Below, piece after piece: positions 9,618 through 34,248 of a stretch of DNA of 64,000 bases (position 1 is its first letter; the number at the start of each line of letters is the position of its first letter). The stretch covers positions 96,001-160,000 of the forward strand of contig CAVQEQ010000003.1 in assembly GCA_963711565.1 (NCBI GenBank), given 5' to 3'. Made by a program: the position numbers and the translations under genes. Under the pieces are notes generated by a model that made no database searches, was not told where the DNA came from, and saw nothing but the letters and a program-made list of their open reading frames with translations. Origin of the DNA: an uncultured delta proteobacterium (GTDB taxonomy: Bacteria > Desulfobacterota > Binatia > Binatales > Binataceae).

Positions 9618-10478
9618 TCAAGCGGCCAGCCTGGTCTTCGCAAGCTCGGCAAACGTGATGAGTTCGATTTCATTTCGAGCGATCGACTCGCGCACGCGCG
9701 GGCTGGTGAGAATCTCAACTTCGAGCTGCGCCTCAGCTGCGGGCGGAGTTCCGCCGATGTCGGCGGCGGGATGGAAATACAGTTCGGTCGTGCCGTCACG
9801 GACTCGATCAAGCACGCCGACTATGTAGTCTTCGCTCAGATGCCCGCTCTGATGAAGTCCGAACAGCGCGTCCGTCGAGGCGAGGCCTCGATTCGCCATC
9901 ATGCGGCTGGTGCGGCGCGAGAGCGTGCGAAAAATTATCGACTCGACGAGCTTGCGCGGCGCATGGTCGCGGCGCAGGCGGAGCGTCGTCAGCACGCGCT
10001 CGCGCGGGAGCCGGATGCACGGCACTTTGTATTCGACGGCGAGGTCAACCAGAATATCGGCGAACAAGGGATGGACGTGGAAATTCAAGTGACCGTCGAT
10101 ATGGTTGAGGTAGCCGACGAGCTCGAGGTGGCGCTCGACTTGCGCACGCAGCTCGTCGGTCATCGCGGCGCGCATCGAGCGGTCGAAGAAATAGCGCATA
10201 CCCGCACCGACGGGACTGTCGATGAACTCGCCCGACGCGCTCACCGCGGCACCGAGACGCGAGGCGTCGAGGAGGCTGCGGCCGCGGCAGACGACCGCAT
10301 GCAAGCCCACGTCGAGCGCGGGATTGTCGCGCGCCATGTCGGCGGCGGCACGCGCGGCTGGCTCCGCCACCATCAGGCTCGCACTGCGCAGAATTCCGTC
10401 GCGATGCGCGCGGATGATACCGGCGTTGACCTCGGGCGACAAGCCGAAGTCGTCGGCGTTGACGATCAGGCGCTTCAA
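9618..10478 (-). CDS. hpnK: ChbG/HpnK family deacetylase
   Basis: LIVNADDFG, VGLH, HIDGHLNFHVHP, TELYFHP; adjacent to hopanoid genes; TTG start inferred. Confidence 0.8.
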   Translation of the reverse strand: MKRLIVNADDFGLSPEVNAGIIRAHRDGILRSASLMVAEPAARAAADMARDNPALDVGLHAVVCRGRSLLDASRLGAAVSASGEFIDSPVGAGMRYFFDRSMRAAMTDELRAQVERHLELVGYLNHIDGHLNFHVHPLFADILVDLAVEYKVPCIRLPRERVLTTLRLRRDHAPRKLVESIIFRTLSRRTSRMMANRGLASTDALFGLHQSGHLSEDYIVGVLDRVRDGTTELYFHPAADIGGTPPAAEAQLEVEILTSPRVRESIARNEIELITFAELAKTRLAA

Positions 10479-10553
10479 GCAGCGCCACCGCGACCAGTCC
10501 AAGTCAAATGCACCGCTCGATTTTGCTAGTATCTGACGGCTCGCTCAAGCGTC

Positions 10554-11387
10554 TTGGCGGAGTGCCAGAATGAGATCGCGAAATTGATTCTTGTCTTTTA
10601 CGCGTTCGCGCGGGAGATCGCGCCATTCAAGCGTCGCCTTCGCAATCGTGCTCCGCTCGCTCTCGACGACTTGCATGGCTTCCGCGCGGAGATCGGCGGC
10701 AAAGATTTTGCGGTCATCGGGCACGGAATCGGTCATCGACGCGCAACCGAAGCCGCGCGCCGTGCGTTCGATCGAATGCCCGGAGCAGAATTGGTAATCG
10801 GCACCGGCGTCGTTGGCGCGCTGTCGAGCGGACTAAAGCCCGGCGATCTCGTCCTCTCCGATCGTGTCTTGACGATTCATACGGACAGCACGCTGGCGGA
10901 AGAAGGGACAGCCGTCAGCGACGTGCACCTGCGCGCCGTCGGCCGATCGCTCACGAGCGCGAGGATTGCGTACTCAACCGGTGCGATCCTGACCTCGCAT
11001 CGCGTGCTCGCCACCGGCGCCGAGAAACGACGCGCCAAGGAAAGCACCGGCGCGATCGCGGTCGATATGGAAACTGCCGCGGTGGCCGCGGAAGCCGCTG
11101 CGCGCGGACTTCCGTTCGTCGCGATTCGCGCCGTGCTCGACGAAGTTGACGACGAAGTGGTGGCCGCCGCGATGGCTGACGAAGACGGCAACGTGCGGCC
11201 GCTCGCCGCGACGTCGTACCTGATTCGCAACCCGGCGACGATGCTGAAGCTGCCGCGGATGATGCGAAACCTTTCGCGCGCAACAGCTTCGATCGCCGAC
11301 GCACTCACGGCCATCGCGCACGAGGGCAAGCTTCCTGCAGCCGCTAAGCGTGCTCGCGCGCCGGTGGAGCGAAAGCCCCCGCGCTGA
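10554..11387 (+). CDS. hpnG: nucleosidase/phosphorylase family, HpnG-like (adenosylhopane nucleosidase)
   Basis: GHGIG, GVVGALS, AIAVDMETAAVA, AIRAVLD; hopanoid context. Confidence 0.75.
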   Translation: MAECQNEIAKLILVFYAFAREIAPFKRRLRNRAPLALDDLHGFRAEIGGKDFAVIGHGIGHRRATEAARRAFDRMPGAELVIGTGVVGALSSGLKPGDLVLSDRVLTIHTDSTLAEEGTAVSDVHLRAVGRSLTSARIAYSTGAILTSHRVLATGAEKRRAKESTGAIAVDMETAAVAAEAAARGLPFVAIRAVLDEVDDEVVAAAMADEDGNVRPLAATSYLIRNPATMLKLPRMMRNLSRATASIADALTAIAHEGKLPAAAKRARAPVERKPPR

Positions 11388-12138
11388 ACCCGCCGTCAAT
11401 CGGCACCGCGATGCCCGTGATGAACCCCGCCTCGTCCGACGCAAGGAACGCCGCGAGCGCGCCGACCTCTTCCGGCTTGCCGTTGCGCCCGAGCGGATGC
11501 ATGTTGCCGGTGCGTTCCCACACCAACTGCGACGCGCCGGCGGGAACGGTATTGCAATTTTCCGCGATTGGCGTCTCGATGACGCCGGGGCAAATCGACA
11601 CGCATCGAATCTTATGGCGCGCGAAGTCGAGCGCGATTCCCTTCGACATGATCACGACGCCGCCCTTCGCTGCCTGGTAGGCGCCGAGATTCGGCACGCC
11701 CTCGATTCCTGCGCCGCTGGCGGTGTTGATGATCACGCCGCCGCCCTGCTTGATCATTTGCGGGATCGCATACTTGCAGCCGAAGAACACGCCCTTCAGG
11801 CACACGTCCACGACCCAATCCCATTCTTCCTCGCTCGTGTCGACCACGGTCTTGGGCACGAAAACGCCCGCGTTGTTGAACAGGATGTCGAGCCGGCCGA
11901 ACGCGCGGATAGTTTCGTTGACCATGCGCTCGACCTCGGCGCCGACGCGCACATCCACCGACACTGAGTTCGCGACGCCGCCGGCCTTCTCGATCTCGGC
12001 CGCCGTATTGCTCGCCGTCTCCGCGCGCACGTCGGCCACCATCACCTTCGCGCCTTCATGCGCGAACCGAATCGCGCTGGCGCGCCCGATTCCCGAACCC
12101 GCACCCGTGATTAACGCAACTTTGTCCTTGAGCAGCAT
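11344..12138 (-). CDS. short-chain dehydrogenase/reductase
   Basis: TGAGSGIG, NNAG, YQAAK. Confidence 0.9.
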   Translation of the reverse strand: MLLKDKVALITGAGSGIGRASAIRFAHEGAKVMVADVRAETASNTAAEIEKAGGVANSVSVDVRVGAEVERMVNETIRAFGRLDILFNNAGVFVPKTVVDTSEEEWDWVVDVCLKGVFFGCKYAIPQMIKQGGGVIINTASGAGIEGVPNLGAYQAAKGGVVIMSKGIALDFARHKIRCVSICPGVIETPIAENCNTVPAGASQLVWERTGNMHPLGRNGKPEEVGALAAFLASDEAGFITGIAVPIDGGFSAGAFAPPAREHA

Positions 12139-12214: not shown

Positions 12215-13114
12215 TTAGGCGGTGACGCTGCGCACCTTGTGTGTGCGCGCGCTCGTTGGCTTCCAGACAGGAAGATCTCGCTCGTAGGGAAAGTCCGCGA
12301 GATGCCGTTCGATCGCCGCGTCGTCGCCCCACGACTCGTGCCGCGTCAGGATATGAATCGCCAGTACCGTGAAGGGCAGGTAAATGAATATCCCGGCCCA
12401 TCCCACATTCGGCGCGTTGATTCGGAACAGCATCGTGATTCCGAAAATCACGATCCCGAAATAGAGCGCCGGACCAAGCAGCGCGCGCGAGCGCATCGCA
12501 GGAACAGAACCGGCGGGCTTCGCAGAACCGCGATTGAGCGACGCGTCGAGCCAATGGAAAATCGCAATCGTGATCGCCGCGACGAGATACCAACCGAGAT
12601 AGTTGGTGATCGGCACGCCGAAGTGCGGACCCGGCGGGTCGTACCAGAAAATCTTGCCGAGGAACCATCTGTCGCCGAGCACGCTCAGCGGATCGACGAC
12701 CATGTCCACCATCACCATGAACAGCGCCGCCATCAGCCATACCCGCGGCGCTCGGCGAATTTGCCACGTGTCGAGAATTCGGAAGTCAAAACCGCGCCGA
12801 TACAGCGGCGAGCTGAGCAGCAGCGCGACCGTGTAGCTGGCGAACGCGAGGAAGGTGAATGAGAGCGAATCCATGAACGGAACGCCGAAGACCCAGATCT
12901 CTCGGGCGCGGGTCGCTTCAATATAGTGATACAGGCCGAACGGGAACCCGTTGTGGATCGACGACCACTCGGACGCGAGCGAGACGGCGTAGGTGAGCAC
13001 GGTGAATAACAGCGTCGTGCGCAGGCCGAAGTTCACAACCGCGATAAACAGAAAACTCGCCAGGAAGATGAACACATACGGGCGCAGCGCGATCGTGGAC
13101 AACAGCAGATGCAT
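12215..13114 (-). CDS. CruF-like (carotenoid biosynthesis protein/DUF422) membrane protein
   Basis: E..SIHNGFPFGLYHY, FGVP, DMVVDP, W..PGPHFGVPITNYLGW. Confidence 0.8.
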   Translation of the reverse strand: MHLLLSTIALRPYVFIFLASFLFIAVVNFGLRTTLLFTVLTYAVSLASEWSSIHNGFPFGLYHYIEATRAREIWVFGVPFMDSLSFTFLAFASYTVALLLSSPLYRRGFDFRILDTWQIRRAPRVWLMAALFMVMVDMVVDPLSVLGDRWFLGKIFWYDPPGPHFGVPITNYLGWYLVAAITIAIFHWLDASLNRGSAKPAGSVPAMRSRALLGPALYFGIVIFGITMLFRINAPNVGWAGIFIYLPFTVLAIHILTRHESWGDDAAIERHLADFPYERDLPVWKPTSARTHKVRSVTA

Positions 13115-13122
13115 CGCCTTGC

Positions 13123-14139
13123 CTACGCGGCGCTCTTCGCCGGCCCTCTGGATCTGAAAAATTCGATAGCTGTCGCGATCGCGGCGTCGATCGGTCCGGG
13201 CGAATAGCCCAACTCCGCGCGCGCCTTCGACGAGTCGAAGAACATTCTCTTTCGCGCCATCCGCACTTCGGTCAGGCTGGCGCGTGGCGCGCGGCGCGTG
13301 ACGGTGCGCGCAAACGCTTCGGCGCCGAGCGCGTAGCCGAACGCTACCGCGTATGGAATTCGCACCTTCGGCCCAGGCATTCCTGAGATCGCCGCGAGCC
13401 GTCCCAGAAATTCCTTGAGCGTGAGATTCTCACCGCCCAAAATATATTTCTCGCCGATTCGTCCGCGCTCCGCCGCAAGCAGATGGCCGCGCGCGACATC
13501 TTCGACATCAACGATATTGAGCCCGGTCTCAACGTACGCCGGCATCCGCCGATTCAGGAAGTCCACGATGATTCTGCCGGTTGGCGTCGGCTTGAAGTCC
13601 AGCGCGCCAATCGGCGTCGAGGGATTCACAATCACCACCGGCGCGCCTGCCCGTGCGGCCTCGAGCGCCGCTTGCTCAGCCATGTACTTCGATCGTTTGT
13701 AATGACCCGGCATCGCGGCGAGCGACGACGGCGTGTCTTCGCGCCCCACTCCGCCATGCGGAATCCCGAGCGCCCCCACCGTGCTGGTATAGACGATTCG
13801 CGAAACTCCCGCATCGGTTGCGGCCCGGATAACATGCTGCGTGCCGGTGACGTTGGTCGCATACATCGGCGCCGGATCGGTCAGCCACAGCCGGTAGTCG
13901 GCGGCGACGTGATAGACCTCGTTGCATCCGTTCACCGCGCGCGCGACCGAATCGAAGTGCCGGAGATCGCCGCACACGATCTCGATCGGCAAACCGACCA
14001 GCGCACTCAGATCCGCGTTCTCGCGCGCCAGCACTCGCACGCGGTCGCCGCGGGCAAGCAGCGCGCGCACAACGTGACATCCAACGAATCCGTTGCCGCC
14101 CGTTACCAGCGCTAACCTGGTAGTCATTCGATTAGTCAA
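13123..14139 (-). CDS. hpnA: hopanoid-associated NAD-dependent epimerase
   Basis: TGGNGFVG, HVAADYRLW, YKRSK, KPTPTGRII. Confidence 0.9.
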   Translation of the reverse strand: MTNRMTTRLALVTGGNGFVGCHVVRALLARGDRVRVLARENADLSALVGLPIEIVCGDLRHFDSVARAVNGCNEVYHVAADYRLWLTDPAPMYATNVTGTQHVIRAATDAGVSRIVYTSTVGALGIPHGGVGREDTPSSLAAMPGHYKRSKYMAEQAALEAARAGAPVVIVNPSTPIGALDFKPTPTGRIIVDFLNRRMPAYVETGLNIVDVEDVARGHLLAAERGRIGEKYILGGENLTLKEFLGRLAAISGMPGPKVRIPYAVAFGYALGAEAFARTVTRRAPRASLTEVRMARKRMFFDSSKARAELGYSPGPIDAAIATAIEFFRSRGPAKSAA

Positions 14140-14142: not shown

Positions 14143-15507
14143 CTATTCGGCGGGCCGCGCGAGAACGGCGGTTGCCGCGGCCCGTCCGGAAATCACAGCG
14201 CTCTCAATCGTCGCCGGCAGTTCCGTTTGTATCCAGTCGCCGGCCAGAAAGAAGTTCGCGATCGGCGTCTTCGCCGTCGGGCGCAATTCATGCGATCGAA
14301 GGTCCGGCGCCATCGTCGCGTTCTTCTCCTTGAGCACCAGCGACTTCACGACTCTGGCTTCGCGCGACGCTGGAATCATGGCGTGGAGATCGTTGATCAC
14401 GATATCAAGAATTTCCTGGTTGCTCCGATCGACCAGCTTACGCGCGCCGCTGATCACGAAACTAAGGTAACCCGGATGCGCCTCGCCGCGCTGCTCGAAT
14501 ATCCGGCGTTTGTTGAATAGCCATTGAGTAGTGGTGCCGATAAAGCCGATGAACGGCGAATTAGTCACTTCGCGATCGAGCCACACGTGGACGCAGATGA
14601 TCGGCGAGCTCGAAAGACCCGTGAAGCGAGAAAAAAATGGATCGGCGACCGCGTTTTCCGGCAGGAGTCGCAACAACTGCGGCGCCGGGACCGCGCTGAT
14701 GAAATCCGATGCCTCGACTCGACGCCCGTCGCGCAGCCGCACGCTTGCGACACGCCCTCCGGCGCCAAGTTCCAGCATCTCGACGATCGAATGCGAAGCA
14801 ACCGTCCCACCCGCCCGCTCAATCAAACGCTTCGCGCCTATGCAGTACAGGTCGCTCAGGCCGACGCGCGAATAGACGAATGCCGAGTCGCCGCGTCGCG
14901 AAAAAAATCCGCGCTTTAGAACTTCGGCCAACAACTGCGCCGATGACGATTCCGGCTCGTCGTTCAGCGTCGCGATCGACATTGGGTACCAAAAGCATCG
15001 GCGCGCATGTTCCGATTGCCCGAGACGATCCATCAACTGCGCGACGGTGAGATGGCGCAGTTCGCTTTTGCTGGAGCGTCTCATCGCGAGCATGCGAAGT
15101 CCGCCGCGCATGACGCTCATTCGCTCCGTGATAGTGAGATGCCGGTAGCCGAGCAGCGCGGCCGTCATGTGCAGAGGGCCCGGCAGGCGCGCGGTTTTCA
15201 GCACTGCACTTTGGCCGGCACCTGCGAGCATTTCGATCTCCAGATCCTCGTGAAACACCAGCTGATCGTAGGCGCCGATTCGCCGCAGAAAATCGAGCGT
15301 TTCAGTGTAACAACCCATCAGGACGTGCTGCCCATTGTCGACGAAATCGCCGGTGTCAGGATCGGCGAACGAATACGCACGCCCGCCAAGCGCGGGTTTC
15401 CCCTCGAGCACGGTGACCCGCACGCCTCTCTCTGCGAGCGCAACCGCCGCGCTCAGTCCCGCAAAGCCGGCGCCGATAACGACCGCATTTTTGGTCACGA
15501 CTGCCAT
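14143..15507 (-). CDS. hpnE: hydroxysqualene dehydroxylase
   Basis: IGAGFAGLSAA, GGRAYSF, DNGQHVLMGCY, LAGDWIQTELPATIESAV. Confidence 0.9.
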   Translation of the reverse strand: MAVVTKNAVVIGAGFAGLSAAVALAERGVRVTVLEGKPALGGRAYSFADPDTGDFVDNGQHVLMGCYTETLDFLRRIGAYDQLVFHEDLEIEMLAGAGQSAVLKTARLPGPLHMTAALLGYRHLTITERMSVMRGGLRMLAMRRSSKSELRHLTVAQLMDRLGQSEHARRCFWYPMSIATLNDEPESSSAQLLAEVLKRGFFSRRGDSAFVYSRVGLSDLYCIGAKRLIERAGGTVASHSIVEMLELGAGGRVASVRLRDGRRVEASDFISAVPAPQLLRLLPENAVADPFFSRFTGLSSSPIICVHVWLDREVTNSPFIGFIGTTTQWLFNKRRIFEQRGEAHPGYLSFVISGARKLVDRSNQEILDIVINDLHAMIPASREARVVKSLVLKEKNATMAPDLRSHELRPTAKTPIANFFLAGDWIQTELPATIESAVISGRAAATAVLARPAE

Positions 15508-16416
15508 TTATCCGCGGAGCGCGCTGAAGCGGCCCTCTGCCCACGCGCGGCCGACCAGGTAGAGCTTGTGCGGCGCGGACAGGCTGTGGCGGCGGTCGAG
15601 CACGCGATAGTTCGACTTGATGATTCGTTCGAGCAGCGCGGCGTAAATGAGGCGCATCGCTTCCGCGGTCAGCAGCGTCGCGCGATCTTCTGCCGCGAGT
15701 TCGCTCTGCGCCAGCGCGTAAAGTTCCCGCGCGCGCCGGGCCTCGAAGTCCATCAGGCCGACGAAGTTCGGCGTGTACACGCCGCCGAGAATTTCTTCCT
15801 CGCTCACGTTGAAGCGCGCGAGGTCTTCCAGAGGCAGATAAATCCGGCCGCGCTCGGCGTCCTCGCGCACGTCGCGCAGAATATTCGTCAGCTGAAGCGC
15901 CAGCCCGAGGTTTTCGGCGTAGAGCTTCGCCGACGGATTGCGGTAGCCGAAAATCTCGATGCAGATTAGGCCCAGCGCCGACGCGACGCGGTAACAGTAC
16001 GGCCGCAGTTCTTCCCAGCTCTGATAGCGCTTGCGCGAGAGGTCCATCTCCACACCGTTGATGATTTCCTCGAACAGCTCGCGCGGAATATGAAATCGCT
16101 TCGCGCTGTCGGCGAGGGCGCGGGAGAGCGCGCGTGTCGGCGCGCCCGCATACACGCGATCGAGTTCCTCGCGCCATCGCTTGAGCAACAGCGCCGGCTC
16201 GCGAATCGATTCGTCGTCGGCAATATCGTCGATGAAGCGGCAGAACGCATATACCGCGTGCAGCGCACGGCGCCGCTCGGGCGGCAGCAAAATGAACGCG
16301 TAGTAAAAGCTCGAACGCGATCGCCGCGTGACTTGCGCGCAGCGTTCGTAGTCAGCGTCGAGCGACGAGGCGTCGCTTCCGGCGAGTTCTTCAGAGGCCG
16401 GCGGCGTTGCTGTCAG
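15508..16416 (-). CDS. hpnD: presqualene diphosphate synthase (extended to inferred CTG start)
   Basis: SSFYYAF.LLP N-terminus lies upstream of the track start; DDIAD, QLTNILRDVRED, GRIYLP. Confidence 0.9.
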   Translation of the reverse strand: MTATPPASEELAGSDASSLDADYERCAQVTRRSRSSFYYAFILLPPERRRALHAVYAFCRFIDDIADDESIREPALLLKRWREELDRVYAGAPTRALSRALADSAKRFHIPRELFEEIINGVEMDLSRKRYQSWEELRPYCYRVASALGLICIEIFGYRNPSAKLYAENLGLALQLTNILRDVREDAERGRIYLPLEDLARFNVSEEEILGGVYTPNFVGLMDFEARRARELYALAQSELAAEDRATLLTAEAMRLIYAALLERIIKSNYRVLDRRHSLSAPHKLYLVGRAWAEGRFSALRG

Positions 16417-17339
16417 ACTTCAAGACGGCCACGGATCGCGCTCCATCCCAGTTTCAGGTAGTCGAGTTTCGTTAGTTCCGGACGCATCCGGAAAACGTCG
16501 TAGTTGACGCGATCGATCGCGCGCAGTATCGCCAGCCCGCCGCCCGCGAACATCACGATGTCGCGACGCAGTCGCTTGTCCACGCGCTTGTGCAGTTCTC
16601 CACCCTCGACGAGCATCGCGCGCGCGACCTCGACTTCGCGACGCATCAAGTCGATGAACTCGCGTCCGGACGTATGCGCCGTCAGGTCCGCAGGCGTCAC
16701 GCCGAATCGTTCCATGTCGCGGCGCGGAAAATAAATTCGTCCTTTGTCGAGATCGACGGCGACGTCCTGCCAGAAATTCGCGAGCTGCAATCCGCTGCAA
16801 ACGAGATCCGACAGACGCTGCCGCTCGGCGTCGCGATAGCCGAACAGGTAGAGCACGAGCCGGCCGACCGGATTCGCGGAGTAGCGTGAGTAACCGAGCA
16901 GGTCGTCGAGCGTGTCGAAGCCCTTGAAGTTCACATCGGAGCGAAACGCGGTCAGCAGATCCTTGAACGGCTCGCTCGGAATGTCGAAGCGGCGCACAGT
17001 ATCGGCGAGCGCAATGAACACCGGATGGCGCGGCGCGCCGGCATACGCCAAATCGAGCTCGCGCTCCCAATCGTCGAGCATCGCGAGGTCGTGATGCTCA
17101 TCGGCGAAGTCGTCAGCCATCCGCGCGTAGGCGTAAATCGCGTACATGTGCGGACGCATCTCGCGCGGCATCAGCCACGACGCCACGGTGAAATTTTCGT
17201 AGTGCGACTTCGCCAGCCGCGCGCAGAATTCGTACGCGCTCGCGACGTCGAACGTTCCCGCCGGCATCGACGCGTCCGGCGCCGCACTCGATGCGTACGA
17301 CATTACGCCGCCATCCACGTTGCCTCGCGCGGTTGCCAT
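16413..17339 (-). CDS. hpnC: hydroxysqualene synthase
   Basis: HYENFTVAS, ADDFADE, YSANPVGRLVL, QLANFWQD. Confidence 0.9.
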   Translation of the reverse strand: MATARGNVDGGVMSYASSAAPDASMPAGTFDVASAYEFCARLAKSHYENFTVASWLMPREMRPHMYAIYAYARMADDFADEHHDLAMLDDWERELDLAYAGAPRHPVFIALADTVRRFDIPSEPFKDLLTAFRSDVNFKGFDTLDDLLGYSRYSANPVGRLVLYLFGYRDAERQRLSDLVCSGLQLANFWQDVAVDLDKGRIYFPRRDMERFGVTPADLTAHTSGREFIDLMRREVEVARAMLVEGGELHKRVDKRLRRDIVMFAGGGLAILRAIDRVNYDVFRMRPELTKLDYLKLGWSAIRGRLEV

Positions 17340-24367: not shown

Positions 24368-24446
24368 CTAACCATTCGGTCAATGGAAACTTTACCGTCA
24401 CAATCTCGAAAGTCAAGAGCGACAGTCCGAGCGGTCAGTCGGTCAG
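24368..24446 (-). promoter_or_regulatory. sigma70-like promoter with TetR-type operator(s)
   Basis: Minus strand TTGACT-N16-TAAAGT, then pseudo-palindrome TTGACCGAATGGTTAG; two more TGACCG half-sites at 24423-24446. Confidence 0.6.
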
Positions 24447-25919: not shown

Positions 25920-26159
25920 ATGTTCGCATGGATTCTAATCGGACTTATCTCGGGATGGCTGGCGGGCAAACTCCTGAACGGCAACGGCTACGGCATGATG
26001 GCTGACATCGGGCTCGGACTGCTAGGTGGAGTGATCGGAGGAATAATCTTCGCGGTGCTGGGAGTACAAGCGCACAACTTCATCGGCGCAATCCTGATGT
26101 CTACGGCAGGAGCCACCGCGCTGGTCATAGCAACGAGAATAATCCGCGACGAGATTTGA
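25920..26159 (+). CDS. GlsB/YeaQ/YmgE family stress membrane protein
   Basis: WILIGLISGWLAGKLL...DIGLGLLGGVIGG; GGAGG RBS. Confidence 0.9.
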   Translation: MFAWILIGLISGWLAGKLLNGNGYGMMADIGLGLLGGVIGGIIFAVLGVQAHNFIGAILMSTAGATALVIATRIIRDEI

Positions 26160-27252: not shown

Positions 27253-27726
27253 CTACCACCCAAAAAAATCTTTCGCGGCGACGAATTTCGCGACGCCGGC
27301 CGCTTCGCCCGCGAGCCGATCGACTTCCTGATCGCCGACCATCGTCGATGACGTAAGGTCAACGCCGTACAGGTCGGCGAGTTCGGTGATCATGCCACCC
27401 CTGGGCTTGCGGCATTCGCAGCGGTCGTCGTCGGTATGCGGACAGATTTGCCATCCGGTCAGGATGTCGCCGAGCTGATGGTCGAGTTGCGCAAGCGCGG
27501 CTTCGACTTTTTCCGCCTTGAGACGGCCGCGCCTGATTCCCGATTGGTTCGTCACTACGAACATCAAATGGTTATGCAGGGGGCGGAGCTTTTCGGCTAC
27601 GTTGGGGAGCAGTTCGACTACGAGGTTGCCGTCGGCGTCTATCGGAATCTCGCGCGACTCGTTGAGCTTGACGAGCGTGCCACCGAGATCGAAGAACAAC
27701 GCGGCGTTGCCGTTCGGATTGGTCAT
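27253..27726 (-). CDS. HAD-IIIA phosphatase, GmhB-like
   Basis: FFDLGGTL, VTNQSG, CPH...CECRKP, MVGD. Confidence 0.85.
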   Translation of the reverse strand: MTNPNGNAALFFDLGGTLVKLNESREIPIDADGNLVVELLPNVAEKLRPLHNHLMFVVTNQSGIRRGRLKAEKVEAALAQLDHQLGDILTGWQICPHTDDDRCECRKPRGGMITELADLYGVDLTSSTMVGDQEVDRLAGEAAGVAKFVAAKDFFGW

Positions 27727-27741: not shown

Positions 27742-29106
27742 TTACGCGTGGCGCCAGTCAACGTGGTCGCGGACGTGCGCGAACACTTCGTCCAGGATTT
27801 CGACGCCCGCTTCGGCCTGCGCTTCGGTGATAACCAGCGACGGGTTGATTCGAATCTTGGGAAAGTAGGCCATCGTCACCAGCCCGCGCTTGAGGCATTC
27901 CTTAAAAATCAGCTCCGTGACCTTCTTGCCGAGCAGTTCCTTGCTCTCGAGATCGCGCACCAGCTCGACGCCTATCAGCAGTCCCTTGCCGCGCACATCG
28001 CCGATGAATTCGTATTTTTCCTTGAGCTGCACCAGCCGCGACAGCATCATCGCACCGACCTCGCGCGAGTTCTCGACCAGGTGCTCTTTCTGAATCGTGC
28101 CGATTGTTTCCGACACTGCTACCGCCGCCAACGGATTTCCGCCGTAGCTCGACGACGACGCGCTCGGCTTGCCGAACGGTTCCGCTTTGCCCAGCTCGTC
28201 GCTCAGCAGCACTCCCGAAACCGGAAAGCCCGAGCCCATCCCTTTGCCGACGGTGACGATATCCGGGCGAGTGCCGCTATGCTCGACGCCCCACCATTTG
28301 CCGGTGCGTCCGAAGCCGGTGATCATTTCGTCGGCGATCAGCAGCGCGCCGAAATCCTTGGCGACCGACTTCACCGCCGGCAGCCAGTCGTCGGGAGGAA
28401 TCACGTTGCCTGCGGTGCCTTGCATCGGCTCGGCAACGATCGCGGCGAGCGAGCCGCTGGTGCTCATCTTGATTTGCTGGCGGGCGAAATCGACGCAGTA
28501 AAGTCCGCAATCGGGATACTTCAACTTGAACGGGCATCGATAGCAGTCCGCGTACGGGACGGTGTACTGCCCGCCCTGCAAGGGTCCGTAGCCTTGCTTC
28601 GACTCGTCGCCAATTAGGCCGAGCACGCCGCCGGTCTTGCCGTGGAAGCCGCCCCAGAAGCTCACAGCCTCATGATGACCCGTTGCGGAGCGCGCCAGCC
28701 GCAGCGCGGCTTCGACCGCCTCCGCGCCGCCACTATATAGATGTGCGCGAGTCAGTCCCGCGGGCGCGACTTCGGCCAGCGCCTTGAACGCCGCCGCGCG
28801 CTCTTTGGTCGCGAATGTGCCGACTGTCAACCGCGCCGCCTGCTTCGACAGCGCCTGCGCCATTGCTGGATGCGCATGGCCGAGGCTCGCGACCGCGACG
28901 CCCGCGAAAAAATCGACGTAGGTGTTGCCGTCGGCGTCGGTGAGCGTCGCCCCCTCGCCATGATCGAACGCGAGACCGGCCAGCAGCGAAATTCGCTGGC
29001 GCCCGGGCGCGATGTATTTTTGTTCGAGTTCGAAGATCTCTTTCGACTTGGGTCCGGGAACCGATGTCTTAATCGAAGGAAGTTTTCCGTTGGTGGTTGT
29101 CATCAA
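27742..29106 (-). CDS. class III PLP-dependent aminotransferase
   Basis: SGGAEAVE, GGFHGKT, EPMQG, IADEMITGFGRTG, VGKG, SYGGNP. Confidence 0.9.
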   Translation of the reverse strand: MMTTTNGKLPSIKTSVPGPKSKEIFELEQKYIAPGRQRISLLAGLAFDHGEGATLTDADGNTYVDFFAGVAVASLGHAHPAMAQALSKQAARLTVGTFATKERAAAFKALAEVAPAGLTRAHLYSGGAEAVEAALRLARSATGHHEAVSFWGGFHGKTGGVLGLIGDESKQGYGPLQGGQYTVPYADCYRCPFKLKYPDCGLYCVDFARQQIKMSTSGSLAAIVAEPMQGTAGNVIPPDDWLPAVKSVAKDFGALLIADEMITGFGRTGKWWGVEHSGTRPDIVTVGKGMGSGFPVSGVLLSDELGKAEPFGKPSASSSSYGGNPLAAVAVSETIGTIQKEHLVENSREVGAMMLSRLVQLKEKYEFIGDVRGKGLLIGVELVRDLESKELLGKKVTELIFKECLKRGLVTMAYFPKIRINPSLVITEAQAEAGVEILDEVFAHVRDHVDWRHA

Positions 29107-29151: not shown

Positions 29152-29973
29152 TTAGCGCGGGCGGCCAAGCAGACTTATCGCACGGCGCGCGATCGCGCGA
29201 GCGGCCGTTGCGCGCACTCGACTGTAGCTAGGCCAGTCATTGAAATCGATAATCGCAAAACGATCGCCACTCAAGACCGCGTCTCCGCCCCACGCTTCGA
29301 GGCCGAGCGCGGCCGCGGCGGCGGAGGCCGCATCCGAGAGAGCGCGCACGGCGGCCTCGGCGACTTCCTCGCCATCAGGATGCACGCTGAAATGCGTGCC
29401 GCCGCTGACACCGTAAAATTTCACGACGCGGCCGACGACTTCCTGCTGCACGTAGGCGAAGCGGATTCCGCGTCGTGCGAAATCAGCGAGGATCGCTTCG
29501 ACCTCTGCGCGATCAGCCGCCCGCTGCACGTCTTCGGGCGCGAGCGCGTGCAAGTCGCCGCGCTTGACGTACACCCCCGCCGACAAATCCAGGGCCGCGA
29601 GCTTACGCACATCGAGCGGCTCGTCAACCGCCACCAATGCTCCCGGCGGCGTCGGCACGCCGGCGCGCTCGAGGCCGGGCGCGAGCAAGTCGCGGTAGCA
29701 GTTGCGAATCGAGAGCGCCGAGTTGACTGCGACCGCGCCCGCCTGCTCGACGGCAGCCAGCCGCTTGAGCGCGCGCGGCCCCTGACACATCGGCAGTACG
29801 AGGTCGGCGCGGGGCGGCGCGTTCGCCGCGAAGCTGACCCCATCGATAGTCTGGATCTCGACGCCTTCGCGCTTCAGCTCCGCCATCGTGGCGTCGAGAA
29901 TCGCGGCATCAGCCTCCACCTTGCCCGGTGAAAACTCGGGTTCCCGATAAATTCCTAAAGCTCGATAGCTCAT
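29152..29973 (-). CDS. uncharacterised ATP-grasp-like protein
   Basis: REPEFSPGKVEADAAI N-terminus, YVKRGD, QQEVVGRVVKFYGV, GGDAV, IIDFNDWPSY. Confidence 0.7.
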   Translation of the reverse strand: MSYRALGIYREPEFSPGKVEADAAILDATMAELKREGVEIQTIDGVSFAANAPPRADLVLPMCQGPRALKRLAAVEQAGAVAVNSALSIRNCYRDLLAPGLERAGVPTPPGALVAVDEPLDVRKLAALDLSAGVYVKRGDLHALAPEDVQRAADRAEVEAILADFARRGIRFAYVQQEVVGRVVKFYGVSGGTHFSVHPDGEEVAEAAVRALSDAASAAAAALGLEAWGGDAVLSGDRFAIIDFNDWPSYSRVRATAARAIARRAISLLGRPR

Positions 29974-30701
29974 GGCATCTTCCGTATTGCCGCCCGGGCG
30001 GCGTCGAGGTCCGACGCTTCATCCACGTCGATCGATCCTTCGAGCTCGATCGCATCCAGCGCCATCCCGCGTTCGATGAGCAGTGCGAGGAAGCGGCGGA
30101 GCGCGTCGAGTCCCGCGCGACGCGCGTCGGCGGCGTAATCGAAAACTCGTGTCGACAGGAAATAGAGCCCCGCCGTCACCATAGAAGTCTGACGGTTGCC
30201 GAGCCGCAGGATCAACCCATTTGATGTTACATCGGCGAAAAGCGGCTTGGCCTCGCCGCGCCATCGCGTGACGGCGAGCACACCGGCCAGATTTTTCTCG
30301 CGGCACTCCTCGATCTTTTTGCGCGACTCATTAACAAAACGCGCGAGCTCTGTCTGTGGAATTACGGCATCGACCGTCAACGCGATAAACCATCCAGGCT
30401 CGAGCAACTCGCCGAGCGCGAGCATCGTCTCCATCGAGTTGGCGGTATCGCGTACGACGAGAGCGACCGACGGCGGATTCGCGATCACCAATTTCTTTTC
30501 GCTAGCGATACGCGCCGTCTCGGAGTTGACGATGGCAACGACCGACGATGCGCCCGCGTCGAGAATCGCACGCGCCTGGCGTGAAAGCATCGCCTCGCCG
30601 CCGAGCATCACGAGCGGCTTGGGAATGTCGTCGCGCGTCGAGTTGCGCAGGCGCTCGCCGCGCCCGGCTGCAATGATCGCTCCTTGCAGTTTCGTCACCA
30701 T
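29970..30701 (-). CDS. NTP transferase (nucleotidyltransferase)
   Basis: IIAAGRGERL...PKPL, TVD, IDVD. Confidence 0.85.
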   Translation of the reverse strand: MVTKLQGAIIAAGRGERLRNSTRDDIPKPLVMLGGEAMLSRQARAILDAGASSVVAIVNSETARIASEKKLVIANPPSVALVVRDTANSMETMLALGELLEPGWFIALTVDAVIPQTELARFVNESRKKIEECREKNLAGVLAVTRWRGEAKPLFADVTSNGLILRLGNRQTSMVTAGLYFLSTRVFDYAADARRAGLDALRRFLALLIERGMALDAIELEGSIDVDEASDLDAARAAIRKMP

Positions 30702-31423
30702 TGAATTTGCGGAACTTCGTCGATCGATCGGATCGTGATGTCGGCCGCGGATGCGTCATCGCCGGATTGCGCGGCGGTTCGCAGCCAGACCGTGCGCATT
30801 CCGAGCTTGCGTGCGGGTGCGCAATCCTTGGCAAGCGAGTCGCCAATCATCGCGGCCGATTCGGGCGCGCATTGTATTTTTTTCAAAGCGGTTTCGAAGA
30901 TGCCCGGCTCGGGTTTGAAAATTCCGACGCGCGAAGAGTCCGCAACCGCCGCGAAGTATCGATCGAGCTTCGCCTCTTCCAGGATGCGGTCGAGATTGCC
31001 GTAGAAGTTCGAGACGATCCCCATCTTGAAGCGGCTCCTGAGCTGTCCGACTACTTCGCGGCTGTGCGCCAGTCCAATAAACGTCTCGCGCACGAAAGAA
31101 TTCGTGACCGCCTCGACGAATCGATAGCGTCCTGCCGCGCCGGCGTCGTCCAGTACTTTGCGCAGAGGCTCGGGCCCGCTTTTCCGCAGGTATTCGAACT
31201 GGTGGCCGACCAGAAAGCGCACGAGATCCGTCAAGCCGAAGCGCGCCACGACTCGCGTCGCGCCATAGCCGATTCGCGTTGCGTGATCGAAAGCCGGGTC
31301 AAGCTCGGCGCGCGAGATCTCGATTCCAGCTGCACGGTAGCTGGCGAGAAATCTATCGAGCCAATGAGCAGGCCCATCGAGCGTACCGCCGAAATCGAAC
31401 AGCAGGACTGTAATCGTGGCCAT
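30695..31423 (-). CDS. HAD family hydrolase
   Basis: LFDFGGTLD, VSNFYGN, KPEPGIF, IGDS..KD. Confidence 0.9.
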   Translation of the reverse strand: MATITVLLFDFGGTLDGPAHWLDRFLASYRAAGIEISRAELDPAFDHATRIGYGATRVVARFGLTDLVRFLVGHQFEYLRKSGPEPLRKVLDDAGAAGRYRFVEAVTNSFVRETFIGLAHSREVVGQLRSRFKMGIVSNFYGNLDRILEEAKLDRYFAAVADSSRVGIFKPEPGIFETALKKIQCAPESAAMIGDSLAKDCAPARKLGMRTVWLRTAAQSGDDASAADITIRSIDEVPQIQW

Positions 31424-31649: not shown

Positions 31650-32885
31650 GTGGCGCGGATCGCGGAAGACGAGGGAATACGGGGTTTTAACGAGACGCTG
31701 GTGATTGAAACTGCTCTAATCGCTGCTCCTGACCGCGCGGACAACGCGGTCTTCGGCCGCCCCTTGCTGGAGCGGCTGATGATTAACTGCGAGCGCGCCG
31801 GCATCAAGCGGTTCGTCGTGGCAGCGTCGCGCGAGAACTATCCGGACGTCGCACGCGCGATGGGCCGGTTCAAAAATTCTGACACGGTCTCGATGGTCGA
31901 GTCGTTCGGCGAGATTCTGAATACTCAGAACGCCCGCGAATTAGGCATCGACCCATTGTCGCCATGCGTGTCGTTTTCGGGGAACCTGGTGTTCGCGAAG
32001 TCACATCTGGCGCGAATCCTTGCGGCGCACGCCTCCGATCCACGATCGGTTCATCGCGAATTCAGCACCGACCACGACTGCGGCGGCGAAATCGCGACCG
32101 GTCCGATTAGTGAGATCCTCAAGCGCGGCGGAATTTCGAACACCGTCACCGCGCCTGCGGCGAGCCTGCTGCCATTCGCGCTGAACGGGCGCCCCGAGGA
32201 TCGCGAAGAGGCGGAACTGCGGCTGGCGAAATCGATTCGCGAGGAATCGGCGCACAAGGACGCGCCGATGGCGCGATGGGTGGACCGCAAGATTTCCTGG
32301 CGCATCAGCTACTGGCTCGCAACCCATACGCGCGCCACGCCGAACATGGTCACGGTCGCGAACACGATCTTCGGCTTGGCGTGCGCGTTGATGTTCTCGG
32401 TGCCGAATTACTGGATGCGGCTGTTCGCGGCAATTTTCTTTTTGATCTCGATCACGATCGACGGCGTCGACGGCGAACTGGCGCGGCTAAAAATGGTCGA
32501 GAGCGATTTCGGCGGCGCGCTCAACGTCCTCACCGACAATATCGTGCACGCCGCGGTGTTCATCGGCTTGCTGATCGGATGCTACCGGGTCGAGCACAGC
32601 GGCGCTTACCTGTACCTGATTCCGATCCTGCTCGGCGGCTTCGCGATGTGCGCGTTCGCGACCTGGCGCGCTTTCAAAGTAAAGGGCGATCAGGCGGCGG
32701 CGTGGCTGGACAAGGTCGATCGATGGAGCGGGCGCGATTTCGCATACCTGCTCGTGGTGTTGGCCTTAATCAATCGGATAGAGTACTTCGCTTGGGGCAC
32801 GGCATTCGGCACTTACGTGTTTGCCCTGGCGCTGATATGGATTACCGGCCGGACCGAATCGTCAATGAAGGCTGAAAGCCTGTAG
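31650..32885 (+). CDS. CDP-alcohol phosphotransferase with degenerate N-terminal NTP-transferase-like domain
   Basis: TPNMVT, DGVDGELAR-x7-FGGALNVLTD, multiple TM segments; N-terminal VFGRPLLERL; start uncertain. Confidence 0.85.
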   Translation: MARIAEDEGIRGFNETLVIETALIAAPDRADNAVFGRPLLERLMINCERAGIKRFVVAASRENYPDVARAMGRFKNSDTVSMVESFGEILNTQNARELGIDPLSPCVSFSGNLVFAKSHLARILAAHASDPRSVHREFSTDHDCGGEIATGPISEILKRGGISNTVTAPAASLLPFALNGRPEDREEAELRLAKSIREESAHKDAPMARWVDRKISWRISYWLATHTRATPNMVTVANTIFGLACALMFSVPNYWMRLFAAIFFLISITIDGVDGELARLKMVESDFGGALNVLTDNIVHAAVFIGLLIGCYRVEHSGAYLYLIPILLGGFAMCAFATWRAFKVKGDQAAAWLDKVDRWSGRDFAYLLVVLALINRIEYFAWGTAFGTYVFALALIWITGRTESSMKAESL

Positions 32886-32916
32886 GAATGAATCGAGGCC
32901 TGCAGGCGGAGGAAGT

Positions 32917-34248
32917 ATGAACGGCAAGAAGCCACGAATTCTCCTGGTGCAACCCACAACCGTCCACCTGGACGGCACGCCGCACAAGACGCGCTGGCGG
33001 TTGATCATGGGACTGATGATTCCGCTGATGGCGGGACTCACGCCCGACGACTACGACGTGACGCTGTGCGACGAGCGCCTCGAAAACATCGACTTCGACG
33101 GCGGATGGGATCTCGTCGGCATGACGACGACGATCGGCGCGTCGCTGCGCGCGTACCAACTCGGCGACGAGTTCCGCAAACGCGGCATCCCCGTGGTCTT
33201 CGGCGGCTTCCATGCGACCCTCCAGACTGAAGAAGCTCTGCATCACTGCGACGCGGTCGTGAAGGGCGAGGCCGACCTGGTATGGCCTGAGCTTTTGCAG
33301 GACTGGCGCGACGGCAAGCTCAAGACGATTTACAAAGCCGACAAGGTGCACGATCTGAAGAACCTGCCGCGCCCTCGTCACGAGCTGCTCAAGCTCAACC
33401 GCTACCTGTTCAAGGCGGCGCCGGTGCAGGCGAGCCGCGGATGCCCGTATCGATGCTCGTTCTGCGAGATTCCGGTCTTCTACGACGGCGCCTATCGCAC
33501 GCGGCCCATCGAGGACATCGTCGAGGAGATCAAGCAGGTCGTCAAGGTCACGGGCTTCCGGCGCTTCCAGTTCATCGACGATCAGATCACCGGCAAGCAC
33601 AAATTCGCGCGCGAGCTGTTCAAGGCGCTCGAGCCGCTCAACATCCGCTTCTCATGCCTGTGGACGATCAACTCGAATCACGACGACGAGCTGCTCGACC
33701 TCGCGGCCAAGGCGGGAATCTTCCACGTCAACATCGGCGTGGAATCGATCAGCCAGGACAGCCTGCTGTCGATGAACAAGATTCAGAATCACGCGAATCA
33801 GTACAAGAAGCTGCTCAAGAAGATGGAGAAATACGGAATCTACTACTCGCTCAACTTCCTGTTCGGGCTGGAAGAGGATCGTCCGGGAATTTTCGACGAG
33901 ACGCTCAAGTTCCTGCACGAGGTCAAGGCGCCCGAGGCGTTCTTCAACACCGTGACCCCGCGCGTTGGCACGCCGATGCGCACGCAGCTCGAGAACGAAG
34001 GCCGCGTGATAATCCCCGACGCCGACTTGTACACCAACAACTTCCGCTGCATGTTCGTGCCCAAGAACATGTCGCCGCAGGAAGTCGAAGAAGGCGTGTG
34101 GCGCTGCACCAAGGAGTTCTACTCGCTCAAGTCGATGTTCAAGCGGCTGCTGATGCCGCCGGGCAAGTTCACCTGGCAGGGCCTGACCGAAAACATGCTC
34201 TTCTACTGGGGCGCCAAGCAGCAGATCGATCCGGTTGATTATTATTAG
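32917..34248 (+). CDS. B12-binding-domain radical SAM enzyme
   Basis: GLTP, VVFGGFHAT, GEAD, SRGCPYRCSFC, FIDD, IGVES. Confidence 0.9.
   Translation: MNGKKPRILLVQPTTVHLDGTPHKTRWRLIMGLMIPLMAGLTPDDYDVTLCDERLENIDFDGGWDLVGMTTTIGASLRAYQLGDEFRKRGIPVVFGGFHATLQTEEALHHCDAVVKGEADLVWPELLQDWRDGKLKTIYKADKVHDLKNLPRPRHELLKLNRYLFKAAPVQASRGCPYRCSFCEIPVFYDGAYRTRPIEDIVEEIKQVVKVTGFRRFQFIDDQITGKHKFARELFKALEPLNIRFSCLWTINSNHDDELLDLAAKAGIFHVNIGVESISQDSLLSMNKIQNHANQYKKLLKKMEKYGIYYSLNFLFGLEEDRPGIFDETLKFLHEVKAPEAFFNTVTPRVGTPMRTQLENEGRVIIPDADLYTNNFRCMFVPKNMSPQEVEEGVWRCTKEFYSLKSMFKRLLMPPGKFTWQGLTENMLFYWGAKQQIDPVDYY

Follow-up and report, generated by a model that had tools for sequence, protein, structure and literature searches.

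The locus at 9618..34248 of the window (the whole stretch of 64,000 nucleotides that was analysed) belongs to Candidatus Binatus, an uncultured soil bacterium, and is made of a canonical hopanoid operon with a separate conserved cassette alongside it. This cassette is unstudied and widely conserved, and comprises a HAD hydrolase, an NTP-transferase, an ATP-grasp protein, a class III aminotransferase, a Gfo/Idh/MocA dehydrogenase (Gfo) and a CDP-alcohol transferase. We propose, with a probability of roughly one half, that it converts inositol to a CDP-activated amino-inositol phosphate, which would then be transferred to a glycerolipid alcohol (diacyl- or alkyl-glycerol). The proposal is based on gene identities, conservation, homology with a Phocaeicola vulgatus cluster, and co-occurrence and adjacency with hpn genes, the substrate, product and acceptor all being predicted. 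The original prediction had described the second block as an uncharacterised head-group module attaching a phospho-(amino)polyol or cyclitol to a hopanoid, or making a partner lipid; conservation and gene context support such a module, an amino-cyclitol phosphate is its likeliest product, and a partner lipid fits better than hopanoid attachment, the acceptor being more probably a glycerolipid than the hopanoid itself. If this is true, the product would be a zwitterionic partner lipid for hopanoid-rich membranes.

Hopanoid operon and its junction with the cassette

All genes named in the original prediction were recovered in 9618..34248 where it had placed them by Pfam and NCBIfam profile searches; those from the Gfo gene to the radical SAM gene match Pfam families, the ATP-grasp protein described below apart. 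The hopanoid block forms three transcription units, the longest of which runs on the minus strand from a TetR regulator (23596..24306; PF00440) through hpnH, the adenosylhopane synthase (22555..23559; TIGR03470, 375 bits, cut-off 225; CxxxCxxC), ispA for FPP synthase (21557..22447; NF045485 over cut-off), a Zn-dependent dehydrogenase whose position is kept in relatives (20493..21560; PF08240/PF00107), the squalene-hopene cyclase gene shc (18524..20482; TIGR01507, 709 bits, cut-off 431), dxr (17344..18513; TIGR00243 over cut-off), hpnC, hpnD and hpnE for squalene synthesis (14143..17339; TIGR03464, TIGR03465 and TIGR03467, all over cut-off), hpnA (13123..14139; TIGR03466, 458 bits, cut-off 368) and a CruF-like membrane hydratase (12215..13114; PF04240, CruF models below cut-off) to an SDR oxidoreductase (11344..12138; PF13561), last in the operon and kept in position in 3/3 Binatus loci fetched. 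The dehydrogenase, hydratase and SDR had been missing from the earlier list. The other units are hpnK, of the BHT-GlcNAc deacetylase family (9618..10502, minus strand; TIGR03473, 252 bits, cut-off 233), and, divergent from it, an hpnG-like phosphorylase (10554..11387, plus strand; PF01048), for which HpnG is the best-matching model (TIGR03468) at 112 bits, below the cut-off of 187. The reported lack of HpnI holds for the window only: the 4.8 Mb genome that carries it (G000) has hpnJ (721 bits, cut-off 578) and hpnI (340 bits, cut-off 310) as neighbours at G000:C3:633299-636008, about 0.5 Mb away. The argument from a missing HpnI therefore fails, since the canonical HpnI/K/J tailoring set is complete in this genome, in which no HpnN was found.

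The two blocks had been described as directly adjoining, which they are not. The TetR gene separates gfo from hpnH, and the gmhB-gfo interval of this genome holds an F420-type LLM oxidoreductase between hairpin repeats (26210..27061, minus strand; TIGR03619 over cut-off) and a small hydrophobic ORF outside the cassette (25920..26159, plus strand; an ORF call with no family match). The oxidoreductase is variable among relatives, being relocated or missing in L030-L034. Soil-metagenome contigs of near-identical strains run unbroken from hpnH to gfo (3.2 kb) and from gmhB to the radical SAM gene (7.2 kb); they end at the repeats, so that the whole junction is spanned by none. Downstream of gfo lies the promoter of the hopanoid operon (24369..24416, minus strand), a conserved -35/-10-like element with an imperfect palindrome, TGACCG-n3-GGTTA, both half-sites of which occur in 10/10 aligned Binataceae regions. 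This palindrome, present in two copies in the 4.8 Mb genome, is likely a TetR operator. The hopanoid operon is thus served by a conserved promoter and palindrome of its own, and a motif search of the cassette intergenic regions did not find the palindrome there; the suggested regulatory join of the two blocks is therefore unsupported.

Cassette genes and proposed pathway

The Gfo dehydrogenase (24496..25527, minus strand; PF01408/PF22725) is predicted to perform the inositol oxidation step. Its best NCBIfam model is IolG (78 bits, cut-off 355), and its best structure matches are 6nor and 6jw6, which we take to be the aminoglycoside dehydrogenases GenD2 and KanD2. The class III aminotransferase (27742..29106, minus strand; PF00202, PLP-lysine motif), a predicted inosose aminotransferase, has orthologues at 46-64% identity in several phyla, and in structure it is nearest to amino-acid aminotransferases and racemases. 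The low IolG score and these structural matches count against our explanation and make the substrates of the two enzymes putative. The two genes travel as a pair: gfo accompanies the aminotransferase in 43/48 loci that have the latter (of the other five, two have gfo cut off, two lie at a contig end and one has no gfo in view), it occurs without the aminotransferase at one locus, and outside Binataceae it lies beside the aminotransferase or one gene away. The cassette further encodes an NTP-transferase, a predicted cytidylyltransferase with a homologue in the P. vulgatus cluster (29970..30701, minus strand; PF12804/PF00483), and a HAD-IA hydrolase, a predicted phosphatase (30695..31423, minus strand; PF00702, motif I DFGGT). 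Two genes are Binataceae additions, a GmhB-like HAD-IIIA protein (27253..27726, minus strand; TIGR01656/TIGR01662, motif I DLGGT) and a B12-binding radical SAM enzyme with a Pfam match (32917..34248, plus strand), whose orthologues (51-53%) elsewhere sit in unrelated gene neighbourhoods; assignment of the latter to HpnJ (80 bits against 578) or HpnR (52 against 650) was ruled out. Both HAD proteins lack the second Asp of motif I, which counts against our explanation.

The ATP-grasp protein (29152..29973, minus strand) belongs to an unnamed family with no Pfam or NCBIfam match in the profile search; the fold named in the original prediction is borne out by an AF2 model (pLDDT 93). For its catalytic half, ITPK kinases make up the best 5 of 18 PDB matches (E 5e-7 to 2e-4) and share its KFY and D-x-N motifs (in alignment with ITPK4 and ITPK1), whereas the ligases listed have R and E-x-N. 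The protein carries catalytic motifs of the ITPK type on a fold like that of RimK, and we predict a cyclitol kinase. It could instead be an amide ligase, with an aminotransferase whose substrate is an amino acid or, as for HpnO, ribosylhopane; the head group would then be an aminoacylated alcohol or one other than inositol. The whole fold is indeed closest to RimK/LysX ligases (Z 21.8), with no ITPK among the best 50 matches listed in that comparison and ITPK1 at Foldseek rank 43, a full-length broad profile places a peptide ligase level with ITPK4, the nearest aminotransferase structures include racemases, and HpnO is described as difficult to distinguish from other aminotransferases in the passages available (PMC12583986). 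We nevertheless find this reading improbable, considering that the ITPK-type K and D-x-N are invariant in 39/39 aligned rows, that the gene is kept in Bacteroidota clusters without the aminotransferase, and that the aminotransferase is itself kept at 46-58% identity in genomes where shc was not found. In other genomes the ATP-grasp domain is fused to the NTP-transferase, HAD or CDP-alcohol transferase.

The long-type CDP-alcohol phosphotransferase (31650..32885, plus strand; PF01066), which would choose the acceptor, resembles AF2299: its best solved structures are AF2299 (4o6m, E 7e-14) and then IPCT/DIPPS (4mnd), and among NCBIfam models IPCT/DIPPS scores best, though below cut-off. In this assembly only, the third motif Asp is replaced by Asn. 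The IPCT/DIPPS matches, together with a polysaccharide flippase beside the Verrucomicrobia cassette L102, would suit a soluble phosphodiester (a di-inositol-phosphate-like solute) or a surface-glycan decoration in place of a membrane lipid. Such a product is doubtful: many cassette loci also encode a membrane protein of HpnL/LPG-synthase type and proteins for lipid transport (MlaC-like, MMPL, TolC), and published passages link the homologous cluster of P. vulgatus to an inositol lipid (PMC9246714).

For the preferred glycerolipid product, each step of the following order is predicted from protein family, motifs and the genes around it. Ino1 would form inositol-1-phosphate, from which the HAD enzyme would remove the phosphate; Gfo would oxidise a ring hydroxyl to give an inosose, and the aminotransferase would convert this to an inosamine. 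The ITPK-like enzyme would phosphorylate the inosamine again, the NTP-transferase would yield CDP-inosamine, and the CDP-alcohol transferase would make the phosphodiester on the glycerolipid alcohol. An HpnL-like protein, encoded elsewhere in this genome and inside the cassette in other lineages, may flip or handle the product, and the family-specific radical SAM and GmhB-like proteins may tailor it. An inositol link is supported by ino1, the myo-inositol-1-phosphate synthase gene: matches to it occur in 25/87 non-Binataceae cassette loci, and in G129 it is inserted inside the cassette. In the present genome ino1 is found some 3-4 kb ahead of the window. In most Binatus genomes ino1 and the cassette are not linked, which counts against our explanation.

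Association with hopanoids and nature of the acceptor

The association of the cassette with hopanoid genes is real and strong. In a phylum draw of 301 genomes (21 with the cassette, 280 without), shc occurs in 19/21 cassette genomes against 33/280 others, and in four other families the cassette adjoins hpnH, hpnJ or hpnK in operon-like arrangements with hpn genes. Both facts stand against the glycerolipid reading and need explanation. It is very improbable that the adjacency is inherited synteny devoid of functional meaning, as five families flank the cassette with different hpn genes at 30-60% protein identity and all 9 cassette-bearing families of the phylum draw fall within its 22/95 families with shc (kin not independent), even though the families concerned are related, the blocks are split in several Binatus genomes, and, in the 2 Binatia genomes of other families with both on one contig, shc and the cassette lie farther than 60 kb apart. 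The neighbourhood survey found a link that recurs in distant families and is not obligate.

We also consider unlikely, though less so, that the long-type transferase of hopanoid producers uses the side chain of bacteriohopanetetrol, or of one of its derivatives, as acceptor for the amino-inositol phosphate, which would yield a composite hopanoid joined by a phosphodiester. Co-directional runs are consistent with it: hpnA-hpnH-HAD-NTP-transferase-ATP-grasp-aminotransferase-gfo-CDP-alcohol transferase-hpnL-like in G128 and G159, ispH-hpnH-cassette-hpnL-like-tolC-hpnN-like-mlaC in G085, hpnJ-cassette in Desulfoferrobacter suflitae and two other Syntrophobacteraceae, and cassette-hpnL-like-hpnK, near hpnJ, in G057. 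Moreover, gfo lies within 13 kb of shc in 33/36 other Binatus genomes (split in none), and among 88 transferase domains placed in a quick tree, 44 rows with shc and 2 without fall in the two long-N-terminus clades, against 3 and 39 in the short clades; those 3 are Verrucomicrobia loci that each also have a long-type gene. However, the tree split tracks taxonomy, and AF2299, structurally the closest match, is archaeal. The main cassette is more than 180 kb from shc in 3 Binatus genomes, and in at least 3 more it is on a different contig, flanked by long clear stretches; 33/52 shc genomes of the phylum draw lack the cassette, and HpnI/K/J tailoring is already available in this genome. One Verrucomicrobia cassette adjoins an SPT-like gene and a sphingolipid desaturase, and HpnL-like genes also accompany phosphonolipid clusters, according to passages in PMC5987646. 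The dependence on hopanoids implied by the original prediction is unsupported, because the same cassette type, with a long-type transferase after the aminotransferase-gfo pair, occurs in G048 (Binatia, 99% complete), where shc, hpnH, hpnJ and hpnE were all not found; shc was likewise not found in G198 (85%) and L107, nor in 14/26 tested genomes with an aminotransferase-type cassette in a separate multi-phylum search (completeness figures absent). It can therefore be surmised that non-hopanoid acceptors are usable. As one query found no serine-palmitoyltransferase-like gene in this genome, a glycerolipid is favoured over a ceramide here.

Comparison with known systems

In the streptidine, 2-deoxystreptamine and rhizopine pathways, Gfo-type oxidation of a cyclitol is followed by transamination, mostly by DegT-type enzymes; the Gfo and aminotransferase of the cassette resemble this aminocyclitol formation. 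To our knowledge, those pathways have neither CDP activation nor a membrane transferase. Compared with the canonical hopanoid pathway (hpnCDE-shc-hpnH-hpnG with HpnI/K/J), all genes are present in this genome, hpnI and hpnJ outside the window, but the operon embeds TetR, Zn-dehydrogenase, CruF-like and SDR genes and HpnN was not found. Canonical HpnI/K/J tailoring leads to a BHT cyclitol ether, as passages in PMC12583986 describe, and the hopanoid literature passages searched hold no mention of a phosphodiester-linked hopanoid.

ITPK1-family kinases act on inositol monophosphate and have homologues in Asgard archaea, according to passages in PMC6900528. The cassette ATP-grasp protein shares their KFY, GxD and D-x-N-x-P motifs and inositol context; unlike them it is bacterial, 273 aa long and nearer RimK in whole fold, with weak E-values and a predicted kinase role. 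The CDP-inositol route of Rhodothermus marinus consists of IPCT and BEPIS (Jorge et al. 2015, as cited in a passage of PMC4587543). There, as in archaeal IPCT/DIPPS, AF2299 and our proposal, the head group and not the lipid is activated as a CDP-alcohol; the cassette transferase resembles AF2299 and IPCT/DIPPS in family and N-terminal domain, with scores far below family cut-offs, but oxidation, amination and kinase steps are not described for that route.

The closest parallel is a cluster proposed, without confirmation, for CDP-inositol lipids in Phocaeicola (Bacteroides) vulgatus, which was shown to make inositol-phospho-dihydroceramide, and in Prevotella (passages of Heaver et al. 2022, PMC9246714). 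The text and supplements of that paper hold no mention of an ATP-grasp gene under the terms searched. P. vulgatus ATCC 8482 (L129) carries in one run an NTP-transferase, an ATP-grasp protein, a CDP-alcohol transferase, an LPG-synthase/HpnL-like protein, a HAD, an MFS protein, a PfkB and ino1, and its gene order suggests that these are the BVU-tagged genes of the published cluster. NTP-transferase, CDP-alcohol transferase, HAD, an LPG-synthase-type membrane protein and ino1 are common to both systems, as is the ATP-grasp protein of L129, which lies between NTP-transferase and transferase and is 35% identical to that of the cassette. The window adds Gfo, the class III aminotransferase, the GmhB-like protein and the B12 radical SAM enzyme, has adjoining hopanoid genes, and encodes a long AF2299-like transferase of another clade. 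In its core the cassette matches the putative alternative inositol-lipid cluster of P. vulgatus, with the Gfo and aminotransferase pair as an extension.

Gene content of the window

Every gene named in the original prediction was confirmed when 40 ORFs were scanned against Pfam and NCBIfam. The homologues of window proteins that carry a name come from Candidatus Binatus and the Binataceae. The window corresponds to C3:96001-160000 of G000, a 95%-complete Candidatus Binatus genome in 4 contigs, and its hopanoid block (9618-24306) carries hpnK, hpnA, hpnC, hpnD, hpnE, dxr, shc (18524-20482), ispA and hpnH (22555-23559) above the NCBIfam family cut-offs, among them the shc, hpnCDE and hpnH genes of a canonical hpn cluster. 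For hpnG, the best model is HpnG at 112 bits against a cut-off of 187. Absent from the original prediction were a TetR gene (23596-24306), a Zn-dehydrogenase (20493-21560), an SDR (11344-12138) and a CruF-like gene (12215-13114) inside the block and, between gfo and gmhB, an LLM oxidoreductase (26210-27061), a small ORF on the opposite strand and hairpin repeats. The Zn-dehydrogenase, the SDR and the CruF-like hydratase are fixed members of the Binatus hopanoid operon. The first two are candidates for the reduction of ribosylhopane to bacteriohopanetetrol (BHT), whose enzyme is not yet established according to the available text of PMC12583986, and the CruF-like hydratase could hydroxylate a C30 terpene.

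The argument for unusual side-chain chemistry that had been drawn from a missing HpnI fails at the genome level, hpnJ and hpnI lying side by side at C3:633-636 kb, both over cut-off. Together with hpnK in the window they complete the HpnI/HpnK/HpnJ set for the BHT cyclitol ether, and the standard route, as summarised in that same available text, is therefore encoded in G000. Genes for an ArnT-like glycosyltransferase and for an LPG-synthase-type flippase occur near the run of hpnJ, hpnI and a DMT transporter (neighbourhood L021:3887-12908, equivalent to G000:C3:627.9-636.9 kb). An HpnL-like gene is located on contig C2 of G000; with one query each, neither HpnN nor a serine-palmitoyltransferase-like (SPT-like) gene was found in this genome.

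The ATP-grasp gene of the adjoining cassette (29152-29973) is carried by 7 of the 24 Binatia genomes from other families, in the order HAD (30695-31423 in the window), NTP-transferase (29970-30701), ATP-grasp, class III aminotransferase (27742-29106), gfo (24496-25527) and CDP-alcohol transferase (31650-32885); the cassette is intact in six of the seven and spread over two contigs in the last, G048. Because this order is conserved, gfo belongs to the cassette, and the GmhB-like (27253-27726) and B12 radical SAM (32917-34248) genes are additions made by the Binataceae. Both HAD-type proteins (27253-27726 and 30695-31423) have a motif I of the form DxGGT, in which the second aspartate is absent. 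A small SMR/YnfA-like membrane ORF, kept in Binatus, lies 3' of the radical SAM gene (34235-34998).

The B12 radical SAM protein was rejected as HpnJ (80 bits against 578, TIGR03471) and as HpnR (52 bits against 650, TIGR04367); its DUF4070 match is sub-threshold, and the NCBIfam output contained no HpnP model. It was likewise rejected as a core cassette gene, since such a gene adjoins the cassette in only one of 87 non-Binataceae loci. At that locus (L047, G137:C8:106000-125999), part of the cassette occurs twice, and a B12 radical SAM gene of 40% identity lies between the two copies. Orthologues at 51-53% occur in 10 genomes, 7 of them without the cassette, and no hpn or cassette genes were found near them in 6 of 6 fetched neighbourhoods.

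Beyond the Binatia, a scan of 14 of the 64 parts of the GTDB collection, with a 124-sequence ATP-grasp alignment as query, confirmed at least 594 relatives; the best 80 of the 594 were retained and come from Bacteroidota, Ignavibacteriota, Gemmatimonadota, Verrucomicrobiota, Desulfobacterota, Myxococcota and Binatia. The family comprises 1,040 representatives at E<=1e-10. The 87 non-Binataceae loci include an aminotransferase in 48 cases, gfo in 44 and both in 43, with an ino1 match in 25 and a distant ino1-like match in three more. Among nine long proteins scanned, the ATP-grasp domain is fused to the NTP-transferase in seven, to HAD plus NTP-transferase in one and to the CDP-alcohol transferase in one. 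As to whether the aminotransferase might be HpnO, which would act on ribosylhopane and be confined to hopanoid producers, the comparison, made by distribution, placed its orthologues (46-58%) in 14 genomes in which shc was not found.

Link between the cassette and the hopanoid genes

The physical association proposed originally is borne out in part. In a draw of 301 genomes from the phylum, the ATP-grasp family is present in 21 and shc in 52; shc was found in 19 of the 21 carriers against 33 of the 280 other genomes, and all 9 carrier families fall among the 22 of 95 families with shc; P values for this association overstate it, because kin are not independent. One of the two carriers lacking shc, G258, has hpnH. 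Over the 36 other Binatus genomes, a count that includes the unpublished G018 and G023, the ATP-grasp gene and shc are no more than 13 kb apart in 17, far apart on one contig in 3 and on different contigs in 14 (2 unscored), and gfo is near shc in 33 and far in none. Adjacency to hpn genes also recurs at a distance. In both G128 and G159, hpnA-hpnH precede the cassette, the genes overlapping or nearly touching, and hpnL-like, DUF2147 or tolC, and hpnN-like genes come next; the G085 cassette is flanked by ispH-hpnH on one side and by hpnL-like, tolC, hpnN-like and mlaC genes on the other. Among the Syntrophobacteraceae, hpnJ precedes the cassette in Desulfoferrobacter suflitae (the one case where it was checked against its cut-off) and in two further members of the family. 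In G057 the cassette continues into hpnL-like and hpnK genes, with hpnJ and ino1 nearby. HpnL-like genes are no marker of a hopanoid substrate, since they also accompany CDP-type phosphonolipid clusters in the portions of PMC5987646 available.

The cassette is also present where shc was not found, a result obtained on 50 of the 62 non-Binataceae GTDB-scan loci (the 12 left out being of Bacteroidales type without aminotransferase) in genomes whose completeness is not given. The gene was found for 9 of 9 loci from former Deltaproteobacteria, one of which duplicates G053, and for 6 of 6 from Verrucomicrobiota, one of them unpublished (G381) and another scoring below cut-off. The counts were 0 of 7 for Gemmatimonadota, 0 of 6 for Ignavibacteriota or Bacteroidota with an aminotransferase, 0 of 1 for the single locus L107 and 0 of 21 for loci without aminotransferase. 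Thus shc was not found for 14 of the 26 tested loci with an aminotransferase in view, a count to be read with the same proviso on completeness. The Binatia genome G048 (99% complete, 2% contamination, 300 contigs) carries the cassette with long-type transferases, AF2299-like and with a long N-terminus, and has no shc, hpnH, hpnE or hpnJ over cut-off.

The suggested regulatory join was not supported. A -35-like TTGAC and the palindrome TGACCG-n3-GGTTA between gfo and tetR are kept in 10 of 10 aligned Binataceae regions, and the palindrome occurs only twice in G000, at window 24369-24382 and at C3:415833-415846. It was not found upstream of gfo, the LLM oxidoreductase or gmhB, nor in the gap between HAD and transferase. 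Since the motif is conserved at tetR and was not found in the cassette intergenic regions, the hopanoid operon likely has its own predicted TetR-controlled promoter. Nor was one shared transcript or regulon supported, the sigma-70 scan returning 1 site against 3.2 expected by chance. The second palindrome copy lies about 75 bases upstream of an unassigned 622-aa B12 radical SAM gene (L152:5891-7759, minus strand), another possible member of the hopanoid regulon; its product has an N-terminal hydrophobic segment. REP-like hairpin repeats occupy window 25599-25714, 26168-26193, 27116-27247 and 34372-35052, in the zone where relatives split the cassette from the hopanoid block and where metagenome contigs end.

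The ATP-grasp and CDP-alcohol enzymes

The ATP-grasp protein (29152-29973) has no family match, and its AF2 model (pLDDT 93) adopts the ATP-grasp fold. Searches with the whole fold could not tell kinase from ligase: in Foldseek, D-Ala-D-Ala ligases came top and maize ITPK1 was at rank 43, and in VIA-align RimK came top (Z 21.8) and none of the 50 matches listed was an ITPK. The ESM Atlas returned unnamed clusters, plus one with RimK on 14% of its members. Profile searches against the PDB placed ITPKs at 5 of the top 6 matches with profile A1 and at the top 5 of 18 with a catalytic-half profile (39 rows); with the broad profile A3, a peptide ligase was level with ITPK4. The invariant K-F-Y, GGD and D-x-N-x-W-P-S line up with ITPK4 and human ITPK1, whereas the ligases shown have R and E-x-N. 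The protein combines the ATP-grasp fold, K(F/V)Y and the D-x-N metal motif of the ITPK1 family, and we consider that it is probably a kinase (roughly 0.6), a ligase being less likely. According to the parts of PMC6900528 available, inositol monophosphate is a substrate of ITPK1, and homologues exist in Asgard archaea. The ATP-grasp family of the cassette, which also occurs in the inositol-lipid cluster of the gut bacterium P. vulgatus, could be a bacterial inositol kinase, an enzyme that eluded identification in Tannerella and mycobacteria according to the accessible text of PMC4587543.

The CDP-alcohol transferase (31650-32885) reaches 75 bits against the 580 of the IPCT/DIPPS model (NF041135). 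It has the four-aspartate motif of CDP-alcohol phosphotransferases, with Asn in place of the third Asp in the G000 assembly (32523-32525). Asp stands at this position in the other Binataceae sequences that show the motif and in contigs from 4 of 4 soil runs, and the Asn probably reflects an assembly error or a rare allele. In a quick tree of 88 transferase domains, whose long/short split follows taxonomy, the clades with a long N-terminus contain 44 domains from genomes with shc and 2 from genomes without, against 3 and 39 in the short clades.

Discussion

The cassette is real and is best read as an uncharacterised variant of the CDP-inositol lipid route; its tie to the hopanoid genes is strong and non-obligate. 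The simplest chain that uses all core genes, every step of which is inferred, would lead from inositol-1-phosphate through inositol, inosose, inosamine and inosamine phosphate to CDP-inosamine, and then to a phosphodiester with a lipid alcohol. We propose that the acceptor is most likely a glycerolipid, at about even odds. At a Verrucomicrobiae locus (L102:13084-15590), three CDP-alcohol transferases lie in a cassette that adjoins an SPT/BioF-like gene and a sphingolipid desaturase, which suggests a ceramide acceptor there. A hopanoid acceptor in the long-type subfamily appears unlikely. It can be hypothesised, with little confidence, that in hopanoid-producing Binatia, Desulfobacterota and Verrucomicrobia an ITPK-like kinase and a dedicated long-type transferase put amino-inositol phosphate on BHT; such a product would form a hopanoid class resembling phospholipids, one that standard bacteriohopanepolyol work-ups would likely miss. 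Were the acceptor indeed a hopanoid, a new composite hopanoid class, relevant to biomarker work, would result.

Candidatus Binatus, which has not been cultured, occurs in soil metagenomes, and the predicted amino-inositol phospholipid has computable diagnostic ions and would concern several phyla, including the cultured species D. suflitae. Literature searches found no description of an amino-inositol phospholipid of this kind, nor any that connects Binatia and hopanoids with CDP-alcohol or inositol chemistry. The available part of an shc-neighbourhood survey (bioRxiv 10.1101/2025.07.29.667474) names only hpnL, M, S and T, and its Table S8 may list cassette genes. Through the cassette, an unnamed family of ATP-grasp proteins also gains a role that can be tested.

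The closest published counterpart is found in Phocaeicola vulgatus ATCC 8482, where genes for an NTP-transferase, an ATP-grasp protein, a CDP-alcohol transferase, an LPG-synthase-like protein, a HAD, an MFS protein, a PfkB protein and ino1 match the putative alternative inositol lipid cluster of Heaver et al, 2022 (PMC9246714, in the parts available). Inositol-phospho-dihydroceramide was detected in that species and the cluster enzymes were not confirmed, according to the same parts. Under the terms searched, the text and 8 supplementary files of that work gave no match for the ATP-grasp gene. The family member (L129:9983-10834) sits inside the published cluster, and the MFS transporter and PfkB kinase lie between HAD and ino1. 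The window shares with the Heaver cluster the grouping of NTP-transferase, CDP-alcohol transferase and HAD, but differs in the position of ino1, which in that cluster is in the immediate vicinity and in G000 (C3:91.7-93.1 kb) lies about 33 kb from the ATP-grasp gene, being unlinked from the cassette in most Binatus genomes.
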